Shown: positions 2,370-46,310, counted from the stretch's first letter. The stretch is 64,000 nucleotides of DNA from Acholeplasmataceae bacterium (GCA_012838945.1 DUOG01000083.1:16072-80071); one strand, 5' to 3'. The notes: generated by a model from the letters alone, not told the origin. Made by a program: numbers and translations.

Positions 2370-4988
2370 ATGAAGCGAAAAGAAATGGCCCCAAAGTACA
2401 ATTTTAAAGAAGTTGAGAAAGGGAAGTATAAATATTGGATTGACCAAGGTTTTTTCACTAGTGGTGATATTAATAAAAGACCTTATACTATTGTGATTCC
2501 ACCACCAAATGTTACTGGAAAACTTCATTTGGGTCATGCTTGGGATACGACCCTTCAAGATATTATTATCAGAAGAAAGCGAATGCAAGGTTACGATGCC
2601 TTATATTTGCCTGGAATGGACCATGCAGGTATTGCAACTCAAGCAAAAATTGATGAAAAACTAAGAAACCAAGGAATTAGCCGCTATGATTTAGGTCGTG
2701 AAGGTTTCTTGAAAGTAGCTTGGGAATGGAAAGAAGAATATGCTGACTTTATCCGTTCACAATGGGCTACGCTTGGTTTATCACTTGATTATACGAAAGA
2801 AAGATTTACCCTTGATGAGGGTCTTAATAAAGCCGTTAATAAAGTATTTATTAAACTTTATGAGGAAGGTCTAATCTATCGTGGTGAACGAATTATCAAT
2901 TGGGATGTTGAAGCAAAGACTGCCCTATCTAATATTGAAGTTGAATATAATGATATTGAAGGCGGTTACTATCACTTCGTTTATCCATTTGTTGACGGTG
3001 ATGGTGGTATCGAAATAGTAACTACCAGACCAGAAACAATGTTTGGTGATACAGCAATAATGGTTCATCCGGATGATGAACGCTACCAAAAATATATTGG
3101 TAAAAAAGTTTATATCCCGGGAACAGACCGAGCCATTCCGATTATTAGTGATGAATATGTTGATCGTGAGTTTGGAACAGGAGCAGTTAAGGTAACTCCA
3201 GCACATGACCCTAATGACTTTGAAGTTGGAGTTCGTCATCAACTTAATTTTATCATTTGTATGAATGAAGATGGAACTATGAACGAATATGCTGGCAAAT
3301 ATCAAGGCCTAGATCGTTTCGAGTGCCGTAGACAAGTTACAAATGATTTAAAAGAGTTGGGTCTATGTACTGAAGTTGAAAAAATGATCCATTCAGTCGG
3401 TCACTCTGAGCGAACTGGGGTTGTTGTTGAACCACGACTTTCTAAACAATGGTTTGTTAAAATGGAACCACTCGCTAAAGCAGTAATTGAGATGCAAGCA
3501 ACCGATGGGGCAGTAAATTTTGTTCCAGAACGTTTTGAAAAAACATTCACCAATTGGCTTGAAAACATTCAAGATTGGTGTATTTCTCGTCAATTATGGT
3601 GGGGTCATCGTATCCCTGCCTGGTATAAAGGTGAAGAAGTATATGTTGGTGAACAATGTCCTGGTGAAGGATGGGTTCAAGATGAAGACGTCCTTGATAC
3701 TTGGTTCTCTAGTGCACTTTGGCCGTTTTCAACTCTTGGATGGCCGAATACGGAGGACCCACTGTTAAAACGATATTTCCCAACTAATACTTTAGTTACG
3801 GGCTATGATATTATTTTCTTCTGGGTTACCCGAATGGTATTCCAATCTAAGCATTTCATGGGAGAACGACCATTTGAACATGTTTTAATCCATGGTTTAA
3901 TTCGTGATGAACAAGGTCGCAAAATGAGTAAATCACTTGGAAATGGTATTGACCCTATGGATCTAGTTGATTCTTATGGTTGTGATGCATTGCGTTATTT
4001 CTTAACGACTAATTCATCTCCAGGTCAAGACTTACGATATTCAGAGGAAAAGATGGGAGCTGCTTGGAACTATATTAATAAGATTTGGAACATCTCTCGC
4101 TTCATTCAAATGAATCTTGATAACCATGATTATCAAGATGAACCTTTAAATTTAGAAATATTAAATGACATTGACAAGTGGATTTTAAATAAGTTAAATT
4201 ATGTAATTGAAAATGCTGATGAATGCTACGAGAAATTTGAATTTGGTGAAGCAGCAAAATTAATCTACAACTTTGTTTGGAATGATTTTGCTTCTTGGTA
4301 TGTTGAACTTACCAAAGTAACTTTCACTGAAGGCAGTAAGGAACAAAAAACTAATGTATGTGCTTTATTAAAGTATTTGTTAAATGCTGTATTAAAACTA
4401 TTACATCCATTCATGCCGTTTGTTACTGAAGAAATATATCAAATTTTCAATGAAGGTTCAATTTGTGTGGCACCGTGGCCGACTGTTCTTAGCTTCGATA
4501 AGGATGTAAAACGATTAGAACTAGTTGATGTTTTACTTAACATCATCACAGCAGTAAGAAATATTAGAGCTGAAAAAAATGTTCCATTAAGCAAAAAGAT
4601 CAATGTTTTAATTGAAACAAAAGAAGCAGAAGTTCAAGCATTCTTACATGACCATTTGTCGTATTTAGCTCGCTTTTTGAATTTTGATCATTTAGAAATT
4701 AAAGAAGATATTGACAAAAACAATGTGATTTCCGCTGTTATTGAACGAGCCATAATTGTAATTCCTGCTGAAAATTTAATTAATATTGAAGAAGAATTGG
4801 CGCGTCTAGAAAAAGAAAAAGTACGACTTGAAAAAGAAGTTGAACGTTCAACTAAAATGCTAGGTAATCCATCCTTTAGAGAAAAAGCGCCAGCCGATAA
4901 GGTGGCTGCGGAAGAAGAAAAGTTAGCTAAATATCAAATTCAATTAACTGAAGTAATTAGATTGATTGAAGATTTAAAGAAAAAATAG
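2370..4988 (+). CDS. valS: Valine--tRNA ligase
   Basis: 872 aa. HIGH-type motif PPPNVTGKLHLGHAW and KMSKS motif (KMSKSLGN). C-terminal coiled coil. Conserved valS-folC adjacency. Confidence 0.93.
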   Translation: MKRKEMAPKYNFKEVEKGKYKYWIDQGFFTSGDINKRPYTIVIPPPNVTGKLHLGHAWDTTLQDIIIRRKRMQGYDALYLPGMDHAGIATQAKIDEKLRNQGISRYDLGREGFLKVAWEWKEEYADFIRSQWATLGLSLDYTKERFTLDEGLNKAVNKVFIKLYEEGLIYRGERIINWDVEAKTALSNIEVEYNDIEGGYYHFVYPFVDGDGGIEIVTTRPETMFGDTAIMVHPDDERYQKYIGKKVYIPGTDRAIPIISDEYVDREFGTGAVKVTPAHDPNDFEVGVRHQLNFIICMNEDGTMNEYAGKYQGLDRFECRRQVTNDLKELGLCTEVEKMIHSVGHSERTGVVVEPRLSKQWFVKMEPLAKAVIEMQATDGAVNFVPERFEKTFTNWLENIQDWCISRQLWWGHRIPAWYKGEEVYVGEQCPGEGWVQDEDVLDTWFSSALWPFSTLGWPNTEDPLLKRYFPTNTLVTGYDIIFFWVTRMVFQSKHFMGERPFEHVLIHGLIRDEQGRKMSKSLGNGIDPMDLVDSYGCDALRYFLTTNSSPGQDLRYSEEKMGAAWNYINKIWNISRFIQMNLDNHDYQDEPLNLEILNDIDKWILNKLNYVIENADECYEKFEFGEAAKLIYNFVWNDFASWYVELTKVTFTEGSKEQKTNVCALLKYLLNAVLKLLHPFMPFVTEEIYQIFNEGSICVAPWPTVLSFDKDVKRLELVDVLLNIITAVRNIRAEKNVPLSKKINVLIETKEAEVQAFLHDHLSYLARFLNFDHLEIKEDIDKNNVISAVIERAIIVIPAENLINIEEELARLEKEKVRLEKEVERSTKMLGNPSFREKAPADKVAAEEEKLAKYQIQLTEVIRLIEDLKKK

Positions 4989-13099: not shown

Positions 13100-13235
13100 T
13101 TATTGCTTGCTTTTTATTATCAATTGATGTATAATATGTATGTTGCAAAAGTCGAGGCAACCGCTCAGAACAGGTTTAAAGTATCTTATGATCACCTTGA
13201 TGGCGTGTCTTAGTTTATATGAGGAGGTGCAAACG
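13100..13235 (+). promoter_or_regulatory. Promoter and 5' leader of rplU-prp-rpmA operon (possible L21 leader)
   Basis: -35 ttgctt / -10 tataat (13130-13135), then a ~95-nt untranslated leader with hairpin potential before the SD gaggagg. The six-frame ORF starting at 13140 is leader, not coding. Confidence 0.45.
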
Positions 13236-25863: not shown

Positions 25864-26613
25864 ATGATTAGATTACAAAAAATTATTGCTGATGCTGGAG
25901 TAGCTTCGAGAAGAAAAGCCGAAGAGTTGATCTTAGCAGGGCGGGTAAAGGTTAATGGTGAGGTTGTCACCGAATTAGGTTATAAAGCAAGTCCCAAAGA
26001 TATCATTATGGTTGATGACAAGGTGGTAAGCAAACAAGAAAAGAAATATTATTGTTTATATAAGCCACGGGGTGTTATTTCTTCGGTAAGTGATCCGTTA
26101 AATAGAAAAACCATAATTGATTTATTAGATGAAGATCTTAAATCTTATCGGTTATATCCCGTAGGACGTTTAGATTATGATACCAAAGGTATCATCCTTT
26201 TAACTAATGATGGAGAGTTTATGAATTTAATGGTAGGACCTCAAAGCGGAGTTCAAAAACAATATTTGGCTCGCCTTGATGGTATTATTGACAAAAAGAC
26301 ATTAGCCACTCTTGAAAAAGGTATTGTGATTGAGGGACAAAAAACACTTCCTTGTATAGCGAGAAGAGTATCAGTAGATCGAAAACATCGTTCTAGTTTG
26401 GTTGATATAACCTTAACTGAAGGGAAATATCATCAAGTGAAGAAGATGTTTGAAGCGGTTGGCTTCCCGGTTAAGAGACTAACTAGAGTTCGCTTTGGAT
26501 GTGTTGAAATTGGAACAATGAGTGAAGGATCATATCGCCCCCTTACCATTCATGAAATAAAAACGTTAAGAGTGCTTGCTCTAGAGGATAAGATAATAAA
26601 ACGCCCTAGATAG
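25864..26613 (+). CDS. rluB: rRNA pseudouridine synthase (RluB/RsuA family, S4 domain)
   Basis: N-terminal S4 domain (RLQKIIADAGVASRRKAEELI). Catalytic motif VGRLDYDTKGIILLTNDGEF. Confidence 0.85.
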   Translation: MIRLQKIIADAGVASRRKAEELILAGRVKVNGEVVTELGYKASPKDIIMVDDKVVSKQEKKYYCLYKPRGVISSVSDPLNRKTIIDLLDEDLKSYRLYPVGRLDYDTKGIILLTNDGEFMNLMVGPQSGVQKQYLARLDGIIDKKTLATLEKGIVIEGQKTLPCIARRVSVDRKHRSSLVDITLTEGKYHQVKKMFEAVGFPVKRLTRVRFGCVEIGTMSEGSYRPLTIHEIKTLRVLALEDKIIKRPR

Positions 26614-26635
26614 TCATATACAGGTCATTTTATAG

Positions 26636-26697
26636 CATTTGAGTGGATAATTACCCACACAATCAAAATTCAAACGCTGTAATAAGGGTTGGTAGAA
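26636..26697 (+). repeat. Copy A of ~55-60 nt conserved intergenic element (TTGAGTGGATAATTACCCACA-N-CAAACGCTGTAATAAGGGTTGG)
   Basis: Near-identical to the copy at 29878-29938. Related copies at 30122-30182 (+), 30813-30877 (-), 31097-31155 (-), 31640-31702 (-). Lies in the promoter/5' UTR region of the PAP2 gene. Confidence 0.8.
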
Positions 26698-26709
26698 AGG
26701 ACAGGTAGT

Positions 26710-27597
26710 ATGTTTTTATATTTTGCTTGGGAATTCGAATTAATAAAATGGTTACAAGAGCATAGTAATAAAATAACTGATTTCTTTTTTAACGCAGCTT
26801 CATTATTTGGAGAAGAAATTATTCTAATAATGGTGGTGGCAGTTGTTTACTGGTGTATCAGTAAAAGACGTGGCGAATATATTGCTTTTTCACTTATGAC
26901 ATCAATCGCCTTGAATGCCATATTGAAAAATATATTCTTAGCTAAACGGCCATTTGAATATGAAGGGTATGGGATTATTAATAAACGTCCCGCAACCGCA
27001 ACCGGAACATCATTCCCGAGTGGTCATACGCAATCTGCATCAACCGCTTTTACTTCGCTATACCTAGCATTTAAGAAAAAGTGGATGTTGTACTTTGCGA
27101 TTATCATAACCATTTTAGTTGCCTTATCACGGATTAATTTAGGGGTTCATTTTGTAACAGATGTTGTTGTTGGTGGTATTCTTGGAGTGGTTTTTGCTAT
27201 CGGAGCTTACAAACTCTTTAACACTTTTGAAAAACAGAAGTTTTTAATCTATTTAATTATTATCCTATTCTTAATACCGGTGTTAATTATCATCGATGAT
27301 AAAGCAATTTATATGGGGGCTGGTCTCTACATTGGTTATGTCAGTGGTATCTTTGTGGAAAATAAGTATATCAATTTCACAACTGAAAGTACCCTTTTAG
27401 AAAAGATAATTCGTGTTTTATTAGGCGTGGTATTGCTTTTTGGTTTAAAAGAAGGTTTAAAATTAATCTTTCCAGAGCAAAATCTATTCCACATGATTAG
27501 ATATGGTTTAATTAGTTTTGTTGGGATAGGCCTCTATCCTGTTACTTTTAAATACATCAACAAAGGTTTATTGAAAATGAGCAAACGGGAAGTCTAA
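26710..27597 (+). CDS. PAP2-family membrane phosphatase with extra C-terminal TM domain
   Basis: PAP2 motifs KRPF (LAKRPFEYEGY), PSGH (FPSGHTQSAS), SR...H...D (LSRINLGVHFVTDVV). Start ATG 26710 with SD aaaggacagg. About 295 aa. Confidence 0.8.
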   Translation: MFLYFAWEFELIKWLQEHSNKITDFFFNAASLFGEEIILIMVVAVVYWCISKRRGEYIAFSLMTSIALNAILKNIFLAKRPFEYEGYGIINKRPATATGTSFPSGHTQSASTAFTSLYLAFKKKWMLYFAIIITILVALSRINLGVHFVTDVVVGGILGVVFAIGAYKLFNTFEKQKFLIYLIIILFLIPVLIIIDDKAIYMGAGLYIGYVSGIFVENKYINFTTESTLLEKIIRVLLGVVLLFGLKEGLKLIFPEQNLFHMIRYGLISFVGIGLYPVTFKYINKGLLKMSKREV

Positions 27598-27610
27598 TCC
27601 CGTTTTTTTC
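27583..27610 (+). terminator. Rho-independent terminator after PAP2 gene
   Basis: aaacgggaagtctaatcccgttttttt overlapping the stop codon. Confidence 0.7.
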
Positions 27611-27698
27611 TTTCAAAATAGTTAAAAATAAATAATCATTTAAAAATTACTAATATATTAATAATGAACTTATTTAAAAGGGGGGGAGTAAGTAAACA

Positions 27699-27881
27699 AT
27701 GTTTGATATCTTATTGGCGATTACCATTACGTTAATAGTTACTGTTATAGTATACTTATTAATAAGAAAAGCGGTAAAAGCCCGCGCAAAATGTGACTTT
27801 GTGACATTAGGATTTATCATTTGGTTTATCCTATTGTTGACAATAGGATTAACTCTCTTGTATGTTGGATTGTTCCTATAA
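27699..27881 (+). CDS. Small two-TM membrane protein (60 aa), hypothetical
   Basis: ORF with SD aaagggggg. Two hydrophobic helices. Followed by a long hairpin terminator. Coding status unverified. Confidence 0.35.
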   Translation: MFDILLAITITLIVTVIVYLLIRKAVKARAKCDFVTLGFIIWFILLLTIGLTLLYVGLFL

Positions 27882-27904
27882 TGTTACAATAATGTAAAAT
27901 AATA

Positions 27905-27962
27905 TTGCCTGCCTAAAGTAGGTGCTTAATGCAAATTAAGTACCTACCGAAGCAGGAATTTT
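27905..27962 (+). terminator. Long imperfect hairpin plus T run (terminator-like) after small ORF
   Basis: cctgc...gtaggtgcttaat gcaa attaagtacctac...gcagg then aatttttatta. About 20 bp nested stem. Confidence 0.55.
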
Positions 27963-28028
27963 TATTATAAATATACTCATCACTTGTATTTTTGACTATA
28001 TTTATGTATAATAATAATGGTGATATTA

Positions 28029-29069
28029 ATGAACGGACTTAAAAATATTGATAAAATAATCATCCCGACTGATATTATTCTTGACTTAGTGGACATCTAT
28101 AAATACATTGGAAAAAATGATGACTATTATAATCGAGTTGAGAATAATTATGATATCATTTTAGAACAAACGATTGAACGTGATACTTACTTTTTAGCTA
28201 GTCTAGCTGACTTAGATCTATCAGACACAAGAATGAGATTAATTATTACTAAGAATTCGAAACCTAGAACAAAAGAAGAGGCCATTCTTGCAAATATTAA
28301 AGAGGTAGTAAAGGTTATTCATCGAAACTCTTCAGAATACATCTTTAATTCAAGTGATCTCCTAGCTATTGCAAATAAGATTTATGACAAAAACAGCGTA
28401 AAGTTTGCTAGTGAAAAGCGATCGCGTAAGACGCCGCTCGCAAGCCAAGCGTTAAGAAGTAAAAGAGTTGTATTTGATGAGATGGTAGATGAATACTCTC
28501 TTTTAATTGAGAAAGAGATACATGAGCGAATTTTCTTATCTACGATGTTTTTTGTTGACTTTATTAATTATCAACCTTTTACTGATAAGAATGAAATAAC
28601 TAGCTATTTGGCTCTCTATTACTTATTACTCAGATGCAATGTCGATGTTTTTAAATATATTAGTTTTTTTGAAAGTTGGTTTGAGGTAAAAGATGAATTT
28701 CAAAAGCAACTCATAGCAGCAAGTTTTAACTGGGAGGAAGGTTTTCCTCAAGTGTTAGGTTTGTTTAGGGTAATTTTGAAAATGATCAAATCCAGCTATC
28801 ATCGCTTAGAAGACTTTATAAAAGAATATTATTATGAAGAGAAAATAAATAAAGCAGATAATGTTGAAAATACTATTTATAAATTGCCAAACATTTTTTC
28901 AAAAGAAGATATTAAGATGATTCACCCTTATATTAGTGAATCAACAATTAATCGTACTCTAGCCAAACTACGAGATGAAAATAAAATTCGTCCACTTGGA
29001 AGAGGACGAAGCGCCAAATGGTGTAAAATCATCGAAGAAGATGATTTTGAACATATTTTTAGAGGATAA
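28029..29069 (+). CDS. Fic/DOC-family-like protein with degenerate active-site motif and C-terminal winged-helix (putative)
   Basis: Region FFVDFINYQPFTDKNEITSYLALYYLLL aligns to the Fic core HPFxDGNGRxxRLL but with H to Q and GNGR to KNEI substitutions. C-terminus INRTLAKLRDENKIRPLGRGRSAKW is wHTH-like. Confidence 0.4.
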   Translation: MNGLKNIDKIIIPTDIILDLVDIYKYIGKNDDYYNRVENNYDIILEQTIERDTYFLASLADLDLSDTRMRLIITKNSKPRTKEEAILANIKEVVKVIHRNSSEYIFNSSDLLAIANKIYDKNSVKFASEKRSRKTPLASQALRSKRVVFDEMVDEYSLLIEKEIHERIFLSTMFFVDFINYQPFTDKNEITSYLALYYLLLRCNVDVFKYISFFESWFEVKDEFQKQLIAASFNWEEGFPQVLGLFRVILKMIKSSYHRLEDFIKEYYYEEKINKADNVENTIYKLPNIFSKEDIKMIHPYISESTINRTLAKLRDENKIRPLGRGRSAKWCKIIEEDDFEHIFRG

Positions 29070-29073
29070 TCAA

Positions 29074-29871
29074 ATGAAACCTATATCGAACTATCATACT
29101 CATATTTACTTATGTAAGCATGCTACTGGTACAGTAAGAGACTATGTAGAAAAAGCTATAAGCTTAGATTATCAAGTGATTGGTATTTCAGATCACGGTC
29201 CAATTAACGAAGAATTAAAAAAACAGTTTTATACTAGACGGATGGATATGAAAGAATATCAAAATATTTACTTGAAGGATCTAGTACAATTAAAAGAAGA
29301 ATATAGAGATAAAATAACCCTTCTAGGAGCACTTGAAATTGAATTCTTTGATGAGATGGTAACTCACTATCCCAAATTCATCAATGAACTTGACTATTTA
29401 ATTTTAGGACAACACTATCTAAAGGTTGATGGTAAGTATACAAGTGTTTATCGAGGCATGACCCCGAAAAACATAAAGATCTATACTGATACCGTATTAA
29501 AAGCATTTGCCTCTGGATACTTTAAAATATTGGCTCATCCAGAAATATTCACTATGAGTTATCCAAAATGGGATGAACATTGTGAACAGGCAACGCAAAG
29601 AATAATTGAAGGTGCTAAAAAATATAATATTATCTTAGAAGTCAATGCCAATGGAATGCGACTTAATAGAGCGGCTTTAACTAAAGATAATAAGTTCACC
29701 AATTCATATCCACATTTAAATTTTTGGCAATCTGTGGCCAAGACTGATTTGCCGGTAATTGTTAATGATGATGCTCATGCAGTGGAACATCTTTGTGATC
29801 AAGCCACTTTTAGAGCTTATGATTTTGCGAGAGAACTTGGACTGAATATTATTCAAAAAATACAGCTTTGA
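29074..29871 (+). CDS. PHP-family phosphoesterase (histidinol-phosphatase HisJ/HisK-like)
   Basis: Start MKPISNYHTHIYLCKHA (YHTH metal-binding motif) at 29074 with SD agagga. Additional His/Asp motifs (GISDHGP, ILAHPE, NDDAH). About 265 aa. Confidence 0.75.
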   Translation: MKPISNYHTHIYLCKHATGTVRDYVEKAISLDYQVIGISDHGPINEELKKQFYTRRMDMKEYQNIYLKDLVQLKEEYRDKITLLGALEIEFFDEMVTHYPKFINELDYLILGQHYLKVDGKYTSVYRGMTPKNIKIYTDTVLKAFASGYFKILAHPEIFTMSYPKWDEHCEQATQRIIEGAKKYNIILEVNANGMRLNRAALTKDNKFTNSYPHLNFWQSVAKTDLPVIVNDDAHAVEHLCDQATFRAYDFARELGLNIIQKIQL

Positions 29872-29877
29872 TTAAAT

Positions 29878-29938
29878 AACTTGAATTGATAATTACCCAC
29901 AAAAACAAAACTCAAACGCTGTGACAAGGCTTATGGAC
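29878..29938 (+). repeat. Copy B of the ~55-60 nt conserved element
   Basis: ttgaattgataattacccacaaaaacaaaactcaaacgctgtgacaaggcttatgg, immediately after the PHP gene stop. Followed by a terminator hairpin. Confidence 0.8.
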
Positions 29939-29962
29939 AACCCCTTAAAAAGGGGTTTTTTG
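29938..29962 (+). terminator. Rho-independent terminator directly after repeat copy B
   Basis: caaccccttaaaaaggggtttttt. Confidence 0.75.
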
Positions 29963-30121
29963 TTTTGGGAAAGTCGTGAATTTATTTTAGCGAAGTGATG
30001 AGAAAGATTAAAATAAAATAAGGTGTGTGTAGTGAAAGTCCTAAATTTTCAGATTGTTAAAATGCAGATGGAGGACTCTAAAATATTTGAAGCTAGCCCC
30101 CTCAAAAATCAGGGCTTATAT

Positions 30122-30182
30122 GATAATTTGAGTTAACAACTATCCACGAAAAACAATTTCAAGCGCTATAAAACGGCTTATT
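30122..30182 (+). repeat. Copy C (diverged) of the conserved element
   Basis: gataatttgagttaacaactatccacgaaaaacaatttcaagcgctataaaacggcttat. Same block order (TTGAGT, xxCCAC, CAAaCGCTxT, AAGGnTTAT). Confidence 0.6.
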
Positions 30183-30812
30183 TTTATGATTCTATAATTA
30201 AAATAAGATATTTTTTTCTTAAGCTTAGTCTTTCATATGGTCTAGAGATGATAAACAGAACAAGTGAAAACAATATTCAAATTATAAGCCTAAAACAAGC
30301 GAAATAAGACATTTTTATATACTACCTAGGTTTCTTATTTAGAAGTATATAAAATCCAAAATTGAGCGTTTTTTTGTCTCAAAGTATTAGAAGTCTTTCG
30401 ACAAAATATGCTATAATTAAATATATCAAATCTTTGTTCTTGAATATGTTTGTTTTTAAAAACGGCTTAACTTTCGACAAATAAATATAATAAACTACTC
30501 TATATTGTGTTAGTAGAACCACTATTACTAGATATTGTTATTGTTGTTATGCTTCCTATAATATATATTATGTTAACTAGTTGTATTGTAAGGTAAAAAG
30601 CGGATAAAACACTAATATGTTGAAATGTTGATAACTACTAAAACACGCATTTTATTACTTATTTTCTGATCAAATAATTGACAAATCTTCTGCTTTTAAA
30701 CCGATTGATTTCTCTCACTACAAGTTTTCTTTCGATAACAATTGACAAATTAAGCAGTCCTTTTGTCATGTTTGTTAGTATTTGAAATACTTGTACTTGT
30801 TATAAGATTCTA

Positions 30813-30877
30813 TTCGACAAAATACCCCATATGTCAGCGTCTGAAATAATTTTTCATGTCCAATAGTATATTCACCT
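30813..30877 (-). repeat. Copy F (degenerate, minus orientation) of the conserved element
   Basis: Reverse complement reads gtgaatatactattggacatgaaaaattatttcagacgctgacatatggggtattttgtcgaa. Shares the CAgACGCTG and GGGTATTTTGTCG blocks with copy E. Confidence 0.45.
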
Positions 30878-31096
30878 TTTCCTACAGAGGCCTACTTTCT
30901 ACACATCTATCCTCCAAAAAAATATATTGGTAATTGGTCGTGCATTTTCTTCAGCTAATGTTTTGTGTTCAAATCTCTAAAGATCATCGTATTAATAAAA
31001 CTATTTTTTTCAAATAGTTTTGTATTTGCCTATATAAATCACTTTATTTTTAACTTGGACTTACACTTTTAAAAATCATCAAAAATAAATAAATAA

Positions 31097-31155
31097 CCAC
31101 CCCTTCTCAGAGCGTTTGAAAAATGTTTTTGTGGATATTCATCCATTCATATTTT
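31097..31155 (-). repeat. Copy D (minus orientation) of the conserved element
   Basis: Reverse complement ggatgaatatccacaaaaacatttttcaaacgctctgagaaggggtggtt. Confidence 0.7.
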
Positions 31156-31639
31156 TCTACAAGAGTCGACATTTTGATGTTTTTTGATTTGGATATATGT
31201 GTGTTTCAAAAAACTTCTTCTTACATATATGACTTGTTTTTTCCGTAAGTATAGAGTATATTTTTTTAAATATATGTTTTTTTAAAATCTATTTTTCCCT
31301 TAACATATATAGAAAAATCAAAATATCTGTTGTTCATTCTTTTCTATATAAATTGATTTTCTCAAGCTAAAAGATTTTATATATATCTTACTCCTTTTGT
31401 TTTTTTCTTCCAGATATATAATTCCCATCTGATTTTATTTTTGAGTGACATTTGTGAATTGACTTTCTATTTGATATATGTATTATCGTTGTCGATATAT
31501 TACATTTTTTAAAAATGCAAGCGACATTGAAATTGTAAAATCTTTTTTATTTAATGATTTCTTTTAAAATGTTTCATTTTTCTAGTTTATATATGTAAAT
31601 ATTTTTTCGGTACAAAATATCAAACAATCTGATTTTATC

Positions 31640-31702
31640 CGACAAAATAACCCTTCCTACAGCGTTCGAAAATTCAAAACGTGGGTAATTGTCCATTCGA
31701 AT
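31640..31702 (-). repeat. Copy E (minus orientation) of the conserved element
   Basis: Reverse complement aattcgaatggacaattacccacgttttgaattttcgaacgctgtaggaagggttattttgtcgg. Confidence 0.75.
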
Positions 31703-31850
31703 TATATAGCGAAGGCTATGTTATATATCTAAAACCTGTTTTTGACAAAATTAAAGTGACATAGGACTTATTCAAAAAAAGTAAATAAAAAAAGCGCATT
31801 ACGCGCTCATTTTATTGTTATCATATATATATAATTTGTTAAATTGATCA

Positions 31851-33715: not shown

Positions 33716-34905
33716 TTATCAATTATCCTCCCCATAAGATTTGTTCCAATTTCAGGTTCTTTTACCCCAAAGTTTCCACAAACTGTTCTTCCTACTGTCG
33801 CAAATGAGTTTTGTAATGGTAAAACTCCTGGTTTAATCTGATTGTGATAGATGAACAGTGGTGGGTATTCTCTAGTATGATCAGTGCCATGATGGATCGG
33901 ATCATTTCCGTGATCGGCTGTAACCATCAAGAGATCATCATCGTTCATTTTTTCAATAAATTCTTTTAATTGAATGTCAAACTCTTCTAAACTTTTTCCA
34001 TAGCCTACTGGATCACGACGATGGCCATATAAAGCATCGAAGTCCACTAAATTAGTGAAACACAAGCCATTAAAGTCTTTATCGAGCATTCTAATTGTTT
34101 CTTCCATACCATTAGAGTTGCTCTTGGTGCGATAACTTTCGGTAATCCCTTCACCTGCAAAAATATCAAATATTTTTCCAATAGCAATTACATCATATCC
34201 AGCAGCTTTTAAAGTATCTAAAGTTGTTGCTGAGAAAGGTTTAACCGCATAATCATGACGATTAGCTGTTCGTTTAAAGTTTTCTGGTGATGTTCCTACA
34301 AATGGTCGGGCGATAATACGGCCTACAAGCCATTCAGGATTATCTAAAGTAATTTTTCGAGCAATTTCACAAATAGAATATAACTCCTCTAGCGGAACTA
34401 TTTCTTCGTGAGCAGCAATTTGTAACACCGAATCAGCCGATGTATAAACAATGATTGCTCCGGTCTTCATGTGTTCGAGACCTAAATCTTTAATAATTTC
34501 AGTTCCACTAGCACTGATATTTCCGATGACTTTTCGGCCAGTTAGTTTTTCTAATTGATCAATTAATTCTTTAGGAAAACCAGTATCAGTGAATGACGGG
34601 AATGGGGTATCAACCTTTAATCCCATTAATTCAAAGTGTCCGGTTAAAGTATCCTTTCCAACACTTATTTCTTTTAAAAGGGTAGCTATTCCTAATAAAT
34701 CTTGTTCAGGTACTGGTTTAATAACTTTATTAGGATTGATATTCCCTGCCCCTAGTTTAGTTAAAGTTGGGATTTTTATTTCTGGATAAGATTCCACAAT
34801 GTGTTTAAAGGTGTTAGAACCTTGATCATTATAAAGATGAGCATCATCAGCTTCACCAAAACCTACTGAATCCATTACTATTACAAAAACTCTTTTAAAT
34901 TTCAT
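33712..34905 (-). CDS. deoB: Phosphopentomutase
   Basis: 397 aa. N-terminus [22 protein letters not shown] typical of DeoB metal site. Adjacent xerD as in Bacillus ripX-drm. Confidence 0.88.
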
Positions 34906-35807
34906 AATACCTCTTTTCCACGCGGATGCGCGTTTTGATAAATTTCTTTGATTCGTCCTTGACTCAAGTGCGTATATATTTGAGTGGTCGAAATATCTTC
35001 ATGTCCAAGTAATTCTTGAACAAACCGTAAATCAGTGCCTGCTTCTAATAAATGAGTCGCAAAAGAATGTCGAAGGGTATGTGGCGAAATCTCTTTTGTT
35101 ATCCCAGCATTTTTACCCAAATTAATTAAAATCTTGTAAAAACCCTGGCGCGATAAAACATTACCGTGATGATTCAAAAAGACAAATCCTCGATCTTTCC
35201 CAGTTACTAATAGTTTGGTACGTCCTTCAATAATGTATTCACGTAATGCTTTAGCAGCATACTCATTTATTGGTACAATTCGTTCTTTTGAACCCTTACC
35301 TCTAATCTTGATTAAATTATTGGTTAAATGGAGATTGTCAAGCTTTAGATTTAAAAGTTCACTGACCCGCAGTCCAGAACCATATACAACTTCAAGCATT
35401 GCTTTGTTTCTCAAATCTAATGGCGTGTTACCTTCTACTACTTCTAACAGGCGTTGAGTTTCATCAATTGATAACACTACTGGCAACTTTTTATCTAACT
35501 TGGGCGACTCAATTAATCTACTTACATCTTTGTCAGTATATTTTTCTTTGTACAAAAACTTATGAAAAGACTTAATAGCACTTAAATAACGGCTTCTAGA
35601 TGATGATGAATACTTTCTTTTTCTTAGATGAGCTAGAAAATCCCGAATATGTTCATCTAAAATGTATTTCGGATCATCAACTAAAGATTTTTCTTTTAAA
35701 AACTCTAGATATTTTTCAATATCATTCATATATGAATTAATGGTATTTTCACTAACCATCTTTTCAGTTGCTAGATAGTATTTGTATTCTATTGCTAATT
35801 CATCCAT
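34902..35807 (-). CDS. xerD: Tyrosine recombinase XerD
   Basis: 301 aa. C-terminal catalytic region [39 protein letters not shown] (R..HxxR..Y). Confidence 0.85.
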
Positions 35808-35822
35808 TTAGTCACCTACTTA

Positions 35823-36941
35823 TTAAAGGATTTCTGCTAGAACATAGTTTCCTAAATAAAGATAAGGGAAATTAATCGCAATATTACCATTTTTTTTAAC
35901 AAGGAGACCACGTTCAAGACCACTTTCGATTTTTGGAAAGGCATCATAAATTGAAACTCCATATTTTTCAAAGAAAGTCTTTTCGCTAACCCCTTCGATT
36001 AATCTCAAGCCTAAGATTAATTCTTCGTTCATTTTATCTTCTTTAGAAAGAACAACTTCTTCAAAATAAAATAATTCACCACTTAATACCCCAGCAAAAT
36101 AACTCTCAAGATTTTTAGTATTTGTATAACGAGTATCATCGATGTAATAACTTGCTGAAGGTCCTAATCCTAAATAATGTTCATTTTTCCAATAAATTAG
36201 GTTATGAGCCGATTGATTACCAGGTAAAGCAAAATTGGATGTTTCATAATGAATGAAGTTAGCTTTACTTAAGCGTTCGATAATGTGAAAGTACATTTTA
36301 CTTTCTAATTCTTCATCCATTAAATTATATTTACCTTTTAAGTGTTGATTATACAAAATGGTATGCGGTTCAAGTTGCAAGGAATAAGTAGAGATATGGG
36401 TAGGCTTTAAACTAAGAAAGAGATCGATTTCTTTATCTAATTCGTTTAAATCAAAGCCAGTTATACCATACATCAAATCTAAATTGATATTAGTTATTCC
36501 GTGTTCCTTTAAAAGGGATACAGCTTTAGATACTAGTTCATAATTATGATTTCTGCCTAATATTTTCAGCTTTCTTTCATCAAAACCTTGAACACCGATG
36601 CTAACCCGTTTAACTTGATATTTTACTAAACATTTAACTAATTCTTCATTTATATCTTCTGGATTAACCTCAATAGTACTCTCCTCTAAGCGTTTGAAAT
36701 CTAAAACCGTGGACAGTTTATCATACAAACGCTCTAAGAGCGTCACACCAAGCGCACTAGGTGTCCCTCCGCCAATATATAAGGTAGAAATTTGGGAAAA
36801 CTTTGATTCCTTGAGATCTATTTCTTTTAAAAGCATGTCGATATATTTTGTCTTTAATTTTTCTCCCGCAATCCTCTTATAAAAATCACAATAGGTACAT
36901 ATTTTTTTACAGAAAGGAATGTGAATGTATAATCCCCTCAT
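35823..36941 (-). CDS. hemW: Radical SAM heme chaperone HemW (HemN-like)
   Basis: 372 aa. N-terminus MRGLYIHIPFCKKICTYCDFYK with CxxxCxxC. Confidence 0.85.
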   Translation of the reverse strand: MRGLYIHIPFCKKICTYCDFYKRIAGEKLKTKYIDMLLKEIDLKESKFSQISTLYIGGGTPSALGVTLLERLYDKLSTVLDFKRLEESTIEVNPEDINEELVKCLVKYQVKRVSIGVQGFDERKLKILGRNHNYELVSKAVSLLKEHGITNINLDLMYGITGFDLNELDKEIDLFLSLKPTHISTYSLQLEPHTILYNQHLKGKYNLMDEELESKMYFHIIERLSKANFIHYETSNFALPGNQSAHNLIYWKNEHYLGLGPSASYYIDDTRYTNTKNLESYFAGVLSGELFYFEEVVLSKEDKMNEELILGLRLIEGVSEKTFFEKYGVSIYDAFPKIESGLERGLLVKKNGNIAINFPYLYLGNYVLAEIL

Positions 36942-46204: not shown

Positions 46205-46310
46205 TGAAAAGAGAACTTTCGTTCCCTACGATGGCATTACCCAACAGGTTCAACGGGTCGTTCTTGAAAACCTCTCAGCCGCATAATTGCAGCTCCCCGA
46301 CTCATTTATT
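46205..46310 (-). ncRNA. TPP (THI-box) riboswitch controlling thiT
   Basis: Minus-strand sequence ggggagc...gctgagag...gacccgttgaacctgttgggtaatgccatcgtagggaa matches the TPP aptamer core (CUGAGA, ACCCGUUGAACCUG, GGUAAUxCCAxCGUAGGGAA). Upstream promoter tttact-17-tataat. Downstream anti-SD pairing ctcttttc / gaaaagag. Confidence 0.88.

Follow-up and report, generated by a model that had tools for sequence, protein, structure and literature searches.

Short imperfect extragenic palindromes of the REP/BIME and REPIN types are known from Proteobacteria, where they are often found just past a stop codon or in the gap between convergent genes, and in both orientations, and REP elements combine the potential to form a stem-loop in mRNA with a conserved primary sequence that is bound by host proteins. 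Classical REPs are 20–40 nt long or arranged as doublets, are scattered through a genome in their hundreds, and are associated with a RAYT transposase. The BOX, RUP and SPRITE repeats of Streptococcus are intergenic repeats of low-GC Gram-positive bacteria, about 100 nt long and with hairpin potential. Other repeated sites mark the replication terminus: the Tus-Ter system of E. coli and the RTP-Ter system of B. subtilis each have two opposed groups of sites of 23–30 bp that flank the terminus, need no hairpin and have a polarity fixed to the direction of the fork, while the matS sites of Enterobacteria, recognized by MatP, are 13-bp palindromes spread over about 800 kb around dif, for which polarity is not needed. 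Replication termination and the organization of the dif region outside E. coli and B. subtilis are largely unknown. Here we describe six copies of a repeated element in a 64,000 nt stretch of an Acholeplasmataceae bacterium (GCA_012838945.1, DUOG01000083.1:16072-80071), referred to below as the window, with positions counted from its first letter. The six copies represent an undescribed, lineage-specific family of imperfect palindromes, about 70–90 nt in length, that are found at gene ends around dif, the site of chromosome-dimer resolution by XerCD. The window sequence, which is about 32% GC, is also present in the metagenome-assembled genome GCA_050953185.1.

All six copies proposed in an earlier note on this DNA were recovered by profile and covariance searches of the window, each within a few bases of the coordinates first given. 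A hidden Markov model (HMM) built from the six copies and run with nhmmer matched them with E values of 7.5e-17 to 5.3e-13 (next best, about 1e-3), and a covariance model (CM) of the hairpin family, R1, run with all filters off, returned the same six at 52.6–79.5 bits (next match, 27 bits). Neither model found a comparable copy in the other 59 kb. An independent repeat search recovered the copies as direct families D1-D3 and inverted pairs I1-I4, and their unguided alignment by MAFFT has 21 invariant columns. Two variants of the arms, TTTGA/TCAAA and TTCGA/TCGAA, occur side by side in this one genome. While the family stands, its proposed length of 55–60 nt was too short, as an element with both arms spans about 88 nt, and the strand that is informative is opposite to the one first noted. 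Copy C had been called diverged and copy D degenerate, fair descriptions given that D has the lowest HMM and CM scores. The full spans, on the strand of the covariance model (the model strand), are as follows:

26618..26705, model strand −: copy A, CM 76.5 bits; nhmmer match 26631-26695 (+), E 7.5e-17; first noted as 26636-26697 (+)
29860..29947, model strand −: copy B, CM 66.7 bits; nhmmer match 29873-29936 (+), E 1.7e-15; first noted as 29878-29938 (+)
30107..30194, model strand −: copy C, CM 66.8 bits; nhmmer match 30121-30188 (+), E 5.2e-15; first noted as 30122-30182 (+)
30809..30896, model strand +: copy D, CM 52.6 bits; nhmmer match 30815-30882 (−), E 5.3e-13; first noted as 30813-30877 (−)
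31084..31171, model strand +: copy E, CM 65.5 bits; nhmmer match 31092-31157 (−), E 1.3e-15; first noted as 31097-31155 (−)
31634..31721, model strand +: copy F, CM 79.5 bits, the top match; nhmmer match 31640-31706 (−), E 4.1e-16; first noted as 31640-31702 (−)

Two weaker resemblances lie within genes. Coding sequence at 36662-36748 (model + strand), inside a hemW-like ORF (35823-36941), resembles the element (nhmmer E 6e-5; CM 27 bits) and contains an 8-bp perfect stem, AGCGTTTG/CAAACGCT. An in-frame insertion of the element into hemW was ruled out, as the sequence is conserved coding sequence and a protein alignment with five relatives shows no insertion. The second (CM 25 bits) is at 29301-29363, inside the PHP gene.

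The centre of the window is the terminus of replication, a decisive piece of context that the earlier note lacked, as it did dif and the mirrored arrangement around it. Cumulative GC skew peaks at about 30 kb (positive before, negative after), and the ORFs of at least 180 aa to the left of this point are on the + strand in 21 of 22 cases, those to its right on the − strand in 22 of 24. The only match to dif in the window is at the GC-skew maximum, and copies A, B and C precede it while D, E and F follow it in mirrored orientation. Copy C is centred 414 nt to the left of dif and copy D 288 nt to the right. The sequence of B. subtilis dif used for comparison, ACTTCCTAGAATATATATTATGTAAACT, is that printed in PMC3025954. 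The features of this region that enter the argument below are:

30551-30578, + strand: dif, the XerCD chromosome-dimer resolution site, GCTTCCTATAATATATATTATGTTAACT, 25 of 28 positions identical to B. subtilis dif
29939..29957, + strand: intrinsic-terminator-like hairpin with an 8-bp stem (four G-C pairs) followed by TTTTGTTTTG, directly 3' of copy B and ending the PHP operon
28029..29069, + strand: gene for a predicted Fic/Fido-fold protein of 346 aa, bordering the dif gap in every related lineage examined
34902..35807, − strand: gene for a XerC/XerD-type tyrosine recombinase (Pfam Phage_integrase, E 6.9e-54, and Phage_int_SAM_1), 4.3 kb from dif

Twelve related loci of about 13–21 kb each were fetched using the 346-aa Fido gene as the anchor. 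Eleven of these span the dif gap, and in all 11 the Fido gene borders a convergent gap that carries dif in the same orientation. The remaining one, L094, is on a contig of 118 kb whose end, at L094 position 7042, is 37 nt past the Fido gene, and a contig end at the edge of the gap fits an assembly break caused by repeats. In L018, where the anchor protein is 75% identical, copies are found at the positions of A, B/C, D, E and F, and the more distant lineages (anchor about 45–54% identical) have one to three copies in or beside the gap. Copy number and positions vary, but in five lineages (the window, L018, L093, L025 and L021) one copy lies 308–418 nt to the left of dif and another 220–421 nt to the right, and L095 has a copy at +286.

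The comparison with L018 provides a measure of constraint. At 4-fold degenerate sites the two genomes are 35–46% identical, against a random expectation of 31% at this composition, and silent sites are saturated. Clearly matching copies of the element are 77–81% identical (copy C, 81% over 70 nt to the L018 copy after the PHP gene; copy F, 79% over 53 nt to the orthologous copy), while the rest of the roughly 2-kb gap shows no alignment beyond a 232-nt block around dif (window 30474-30699; 74% identical) and short, weak matches. Since this identity is retained despite saturated silent sites and within a surrounding gap that cannot be aligned, the copies are under purifying selection.

The secondary structure was examined in an alignment (A5) of 22 copies from 10 lineages and three phage-like contigs, on the model strand, for which the consensus is AATAACCCTTCTGTGAGCGTTCGAA / ATTTAAAAA / GTGGGTAATTATCCAT / TCGAACGCTATAAAA. 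The element consists of an outer stem of 5–17 bp, a one-sided, A/U-rich bulge of 11–14 nt and a short inner hairpin. The inner hairpin is the 14-bp near-palindrome, TGGATAATTACCCA, pointed out in the earlier note, which does have two mismatches to its own reverse complement. Modelled with a 17-bp outer and a 6-bp inner helix, 70.9% of the helix positions in A5 are paired, versus 37–45% with slid partners; none of 500 shuffles reached either the observed pairing or the observed covariation score, and 14 of the 23 pairs change on both sides. In a sister clade the element comes directly after parC and forms a very stable two-tier hairpin (fold z −2.8 to −6.7), with 6 of 19 pairs compensatory among only four sequences; the near-palindrome is its inner hairpin and itself carries compensatory changes. 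Long, near-perfect arms are present in L042 (10 bp), L023 (17 bp) and L094 (13 bp), and those of other copies have decayed; L176 has a 13-bp outer stem formed by AACCCTTCTGTAA and TTATAGAAGGGTT, and a second copy in L023, between two genes on the far side of dif, folds with z −6. Base pairing in single-stranded nucleic acid is thus a prediction that is supported across the family. The best-paired copy in the window is A, with 18 Watson-Crick and 2 G-U pairs out of 23 and a predicted fold of −14.9 kcal/mol (z −2.6) on the − strand and −13.6 (z −1.9) on the + strand. Copy E folds with z −2.6 and −1.8 on the two strands.

A second common property is position at gene ends. Of about 30 copies, 15 start within 0–15 nt of the stop codon that ends the preceding gene, and one more does so at 38 nt. 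The upstream genes in these cases are rluB, PHP, parC, the hydrolase gene, a HI0933-like gene, a phage methylase gene and small phage ORFs, and the adjacent copies are in the model's sense orientation nine times and antisense seven times. None of the six window copies overlaps an ORF of 50 aa or more, except that 12 nt of the copy B span cover the region of the PHP stop codon. Copy A is between the stop codon of a rluB-like gene (26611-26613) and the start of the PAP2 gene (26711), the core of copy B begins 2 nt past the PHP stop codon (29869-29871) with its left arm overlapping the gene end, and copy F is about 70 nt past the terminator of a TMEM164-family gene. A U-run resembling that of an intrinsic terminator follows the parC-proximal copy in L177, and L178 has a plain terminator at that position.

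By analogy with the systems described above, the reading we favour, tentatively and at somewhat less than an even chance, is that these elements work like extragenic palindromes of the REP/BIME type, centred on dif. They would be cis elements located where operons end and able, when single-stranded, to fold into a stem-loop. As RNA hairpins they would serve to end, process or stabilize transcripts, and would incidentally shield dif from convergent transcription on both sides. The conserved arm and box sequences would probably also bind a host factor. The copies themselves, their covarying potential to pair, their conservation under selection, their position beside stop codons and around dif and their lack of a conserved polarity are observed; formation of the hairpin in RNA rather than DNA, any effect on transcripts or dif, and any bound protein are inferred.

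Several observations weigh against this reading. Copies B, C, D and F fold no better than shuffles on either strand (z +1.5 and +0.6 for B, a poor hairpin), although their sequences are conserved; they are hairpins that have decayed while the sequence was kept. The hairpin alone can therefore not be the whole function, and the conservation of copies that do not pair is left unexplained by a plain REP model. So is their restriction to the neighbourhood of dif, as the only six strong copies in 64 kb lie within 5.1 kb around this site and are not dispersed in the manner of REPs. The elements differ further from classical REPs in being about 70–90 nt long, with a two-tier hairpin and a one-sided bulge, in having few copies, within about ±5 kb of dif, and in belonging to a low-GC, Bacilli- or Acholeplasma-like host and also to phage contigs. 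Near the copies there is no RAYT or other transposase among the annotated genes, nor were target duplications or empty sites seen. As to the strand, the stem model on the first-noted strand pairs 59.5% of positions, a value reached by 91 of 500 shuffles, and the ratio of G-U to A-C cells on the model strand (76:39) is a modest excess over the approximately 59:41 that composition alone predicts, so that the G-U strand bias is only suggestive. The differences from BOX, RUP and SPRITE are of the same kind, as those families are dispersed, numerous and not centred on dif; judged by eye, they are not known to share sequence similarity with the element.

The restriction to dif and the conservation of the non-pairing copies keep alive another explanation, that a terminus-specific protein binds the elements as double-stranded DNA. 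This might be a matS/MatP-like organizer or a Xer or FtsK accessory factor, or the elements might be preferred sites of topoisomerase IV or gyrase; they would serve to mark or process the dif region, with polarity irrelevant. This we consider unlikely, albeit with a real chance of being correct. The clustering of copies at dif and nowhere else in the window is what such sites would show, as is the pair of copies about 300–420 nt to either side of dif in five lineages. The 5' arm, the box and the TCnnnCG motif are conserved whatever the orientation of transcription, even in copies incapable of forming the hairpin, and the purifying selection on the copies and the genes for ParE-ParC, XerD and a winged-helix protein beside the gap also suit this explanation. 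The earlier suggestion that the near-palindrome is a site for dimeric helix-turn-helix (HTH) regulators or recombinases meets the difficulty that the box and outer arms change between lineages with self-complementarity kept, which is the covariation of a hairpin, and the coexisting arm variants likewise fit base pairing better than a fixed half-site. The recognition residues of the Fido winged helix are, by eye, nearly invariant while the box varies, copies are also found in phage contigs that lack dif, and no candidate binding protein was identified. Compared with matS, which also marks the terminus around dif by repeated sites, the element is about 80 nt long rather than a 13-bp palindrome, is confined to 5 kb rather than about 800 kb, and no MatP-like protein was identified.

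The mirrored arrangement A, B, C, dif, D, E, F at the switch in GC skew, seen with the same layout in L018 and mirrored about dif in four other lineages, resembles a polar fork trap of the Ter type, with three opposed sites on each side bound by a terminator protein. In the window and L018, however, every copy read on the model strand points away from dif, in L093, L020, L095 and L023 every copy points towards it, and L021 and L025 have a mixture. A trap cannot work in both senses, and since the polarity is not conserved between related lineages, as it is for Ter sites, a fork trap is not supported and has only a very slight probability. Copies co-oriented with replication, or with the convergent genes, would produce a mirror layout in each lineage just as well. 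The ten neighbouring ORFs scanned against Pfam include no Tus or RTP, and no other candidate for a terminator protein emerged. The element is not known to resemble the Ter consensus of B. subtilis or E. coli.

The earlier note had also likened copy B to a small-RNA gene, as a compact unit of repeat plus terminator. The terminator is real (hairpin 29939-29957, then a T-run), but it accompanies only one of the six copies; most window copies fold no better than shuffles, and roughly half of the family lies against a stop codon, in one orientation or the other, so the comparison does not hold. More broadly, the elements might be independently transcribed small RNAs or cis-regulatory leaders (riboswitches or attenuators), a highly improbable explanation even though hairpin covariation is consistent with it, and a Shine-Dalgarno sequence and start codon come shortly after copy A, the copies of L037 and L042, and those of the sister clade. 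The region has no excess of promoter-like sites (42, against 38.7 expected), the downstream genes are unrelated (the copy in L177 comes after parC, not before the Fido gene), and orientation relative to neighbouring genes is inconsistent. Rfam 15 has no family on any copy, either at gathering score or at E≤10, which upholds the earlier view that this is no known riboswitch. Nor is a leader peptide indicated: an apparent MDNYP...SNA..R reading frame suggested a coding element or leader peptide, but this candidate was rejected, as several copies have in-frame stops and the substitutions lack 3-nt periodicity (mean column entropy 0.60, 0.68 and 0.72 for the codon positions, in every frame).

Other identities were considered and set aside. 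In 7 of 18 copies, TTACCCACA and TTATCCACA come within 0–1 mismatch of a DnaA box, but relatives show free drift at this box and the match was considered a coincidence. Promoters of the sigma-70, ECF or sigma-54 types showed no consistent −35/−10 geometry by eye in either orientation, and no enrichment in the scan. Matches to Cheo, cre, Fur and ARG boxes were only partial, by eye.

Copies outside the chromosome were sought by pattern scans. Genome contigs gave seven single matches, which is the chance level. Among 63 single matches in metagenome contigs, two, L037 and L042, were true copies by HMM, and the one match in viral contigs, L092, is the same contig as L037. Both L037 and L042 are phage-like, with genes for terminase, D5 primase, SNF2 helicase, methylase and GIY-YIG proteins. 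A 45.8-kb phage contig related to L042, L096, has a copy at the same position as L042, and each of these three contigs has one copy, located between cistrons. Of 80 loci (1.37 Mb) kept from a helicase-based search for phage relatives, only L096 carries a copy. No match to the element was found in 50,697 phage and 72,556 plasmid records, and no described equivalent was found in the literature. In L096 (2876-3560), a gene for a 193-aa serine recombinase of the resolvase/invertase type (2972-3553) lies between the element and the helicase gene, on an insert flanked by a direct repeat of approximately 18 nt (AGAAAGGAAATAAATATAT and AAAAAGGAAATAGATATAT) and absent from L042. A res site for such a recombinase was rejected as an identity for the element, because no gene of this type is present in the window or in the loci of relatives, and L042 has the element without it.

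Alternatively, the element might be a selfish palindrome, similar to a MITE or REPIN, that was possibly spread by phages and accumulates in the tolerant dif gap and beside stop codons with no function for the host. The copies in phage-like contigs, the opposite orientations right after the PHP stop codon in the window and L093, the variation in copy number and position, and the presence of long, near-perfect arms in L042, L023 and L094 alongside decayed arms elsewhere would all be expected of a mobile element. Orthologous copies that remain 77–81% identical when silent sites are saturated point to constraint rather than neutral decay, and the confinement of the six copies in 64 kb to the vicinity of dif, together with a lack of target-site duplications by eye at the copies read and of a transposase or RAYT among the annotated genes nearby, makes this origin quite unlikely.

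Several short sequences beside dif were noted by eye. Three recur in relatives: TTCGACAAATAAAT, 80–150 nt to the left of dif (window 30473-30486, and also 30397-30408); AAGGTAAAAAGC, about 12 nt to the right (window 30590-30601); and ATGTTGATAA (window 30625-30634), which resembles the XerD arm of dif. They could be accessory or extra XerD-type sites. The heptamer TTCGACA, or variants with one mismatch, occurs five times, always on the + strand (30397-30403, 30473-30479, 30813-30819, 31638-31644 and 31741-31747), and copies D and F each have one of these as their tail. Its complement, TGTCGAA, is the consensus of the Spo0A box. An extended −10-like sequence, TGCTATAAT, is at 30409-30417 (+), about 135 nt to the left of dif, and transcription from it would cross dif and then copies D–F in the model's sense orientation.

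Words skewed by strand towards dif (30565) over the whole window include GAAGAAG (35:2), AAGAAGAA (18:0) and AGAAGTA (22:0), counts that are not controlled for coding-strand bias, and these are candidates for words that orient FtsK/SpoIIIE, like KOPS or AIMS. The element itself was also examined as such a motif, on account of GAGAAGGG, the B. subtilis SRS, in the tail of copy E; it was rejected, as AGAAGGG is unskewed in the window (4:4).

The gene neighbourhood of the terminus is conserved, in the order (parE-parC or PAP2), Fido-winged-helix, PHP, dif, hydrolase, deoB and xerD. Upstream of the Fido gene are PAP2 and other genes in the window's clade, and parE-parC in the sister clade, while deoB and xerD are on the far side of the gap, usually preceded by the hydrolase gene; the position of the xerC/D-type gene is kept in those relatives whose loci reach that far. 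The 346-aa protein has no Pfam domain, but by profile it matches PDB 8uqu, 'Fido domain-containing protein' (E 3.8e-24), and its AF2 model (pLDDT 89) gives Foldseek matches to 8uqu and to SoFic (3eqx/3zec), from which it is predicted to have a Fic/Fido fold and a C-terminal winged helix. Its Fic motif looks degenerate by eye (QPFTDKNE compared to HxFx(D/E)GNGRxxR). There are about 394 homologues, with source names such as 'Bacilli bacterium' and 'Acholeplasmataceae bacterium'. Some Fic toxins modify GyrB and ParE, and the linkage of this gene to the dif gap and, in the sister clade, to parE-parC may be meaningful.

Elsewhere, the region between a 60-aa ORF and the Fido gene (27894-28003, +) has a sub-threshold match to the L10 leader (29.4 bits, gathering score 44; E 0.068) and contains, by eye, a long hairpin, CCTGCCTAAAGTAGGTGC...GTACCTACCGAAGCAGG. 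A T-box leader (2079-2324, +), an L21 leader (13149-13220, +) and a TPP riboswitch (46206-46309, −) score above the Rfam gathering thresholds and are ordinary Firmicute features; with the GC content and the source names of the Fido homologues, they put the organism among uncultured low-GC Bacilli. The genome also has sporulation-type genes (spmA/B-like and dacB-like).

At a minimum, the elements add a new REP-like family to those of low-GC bacteria, unusual in that its distribution is restricted by position. The analysis provides a covariance model for the family, places dif and the terminus in these metagenome-assembled genomes, and defines a conserved terminus gene neighbourhood. A further proposal, which we regard as rather improbable, is that the elements act in cis in the biology of the terminus, in uncultured Bacilli that form a clade at family level and in which no Tus or RTP was seen, and were borrowed by phages, with a pair of sites kept about 300–400 bp to each side of dif. 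Such sites might pause replication forks, load or stop FtsK/SpoIIIE or topoisomerase IV, or assist XerCD, possibly as extruded hairpins. If the elements were only transcript-end hairpins the finding would be modest, and it would be of high interest only if the link to the terminus were true; repeats that bracket dif across an uncultured lineage and are selectively kept are, in that respect, a concrete candidate for a terminus-linked cis element.

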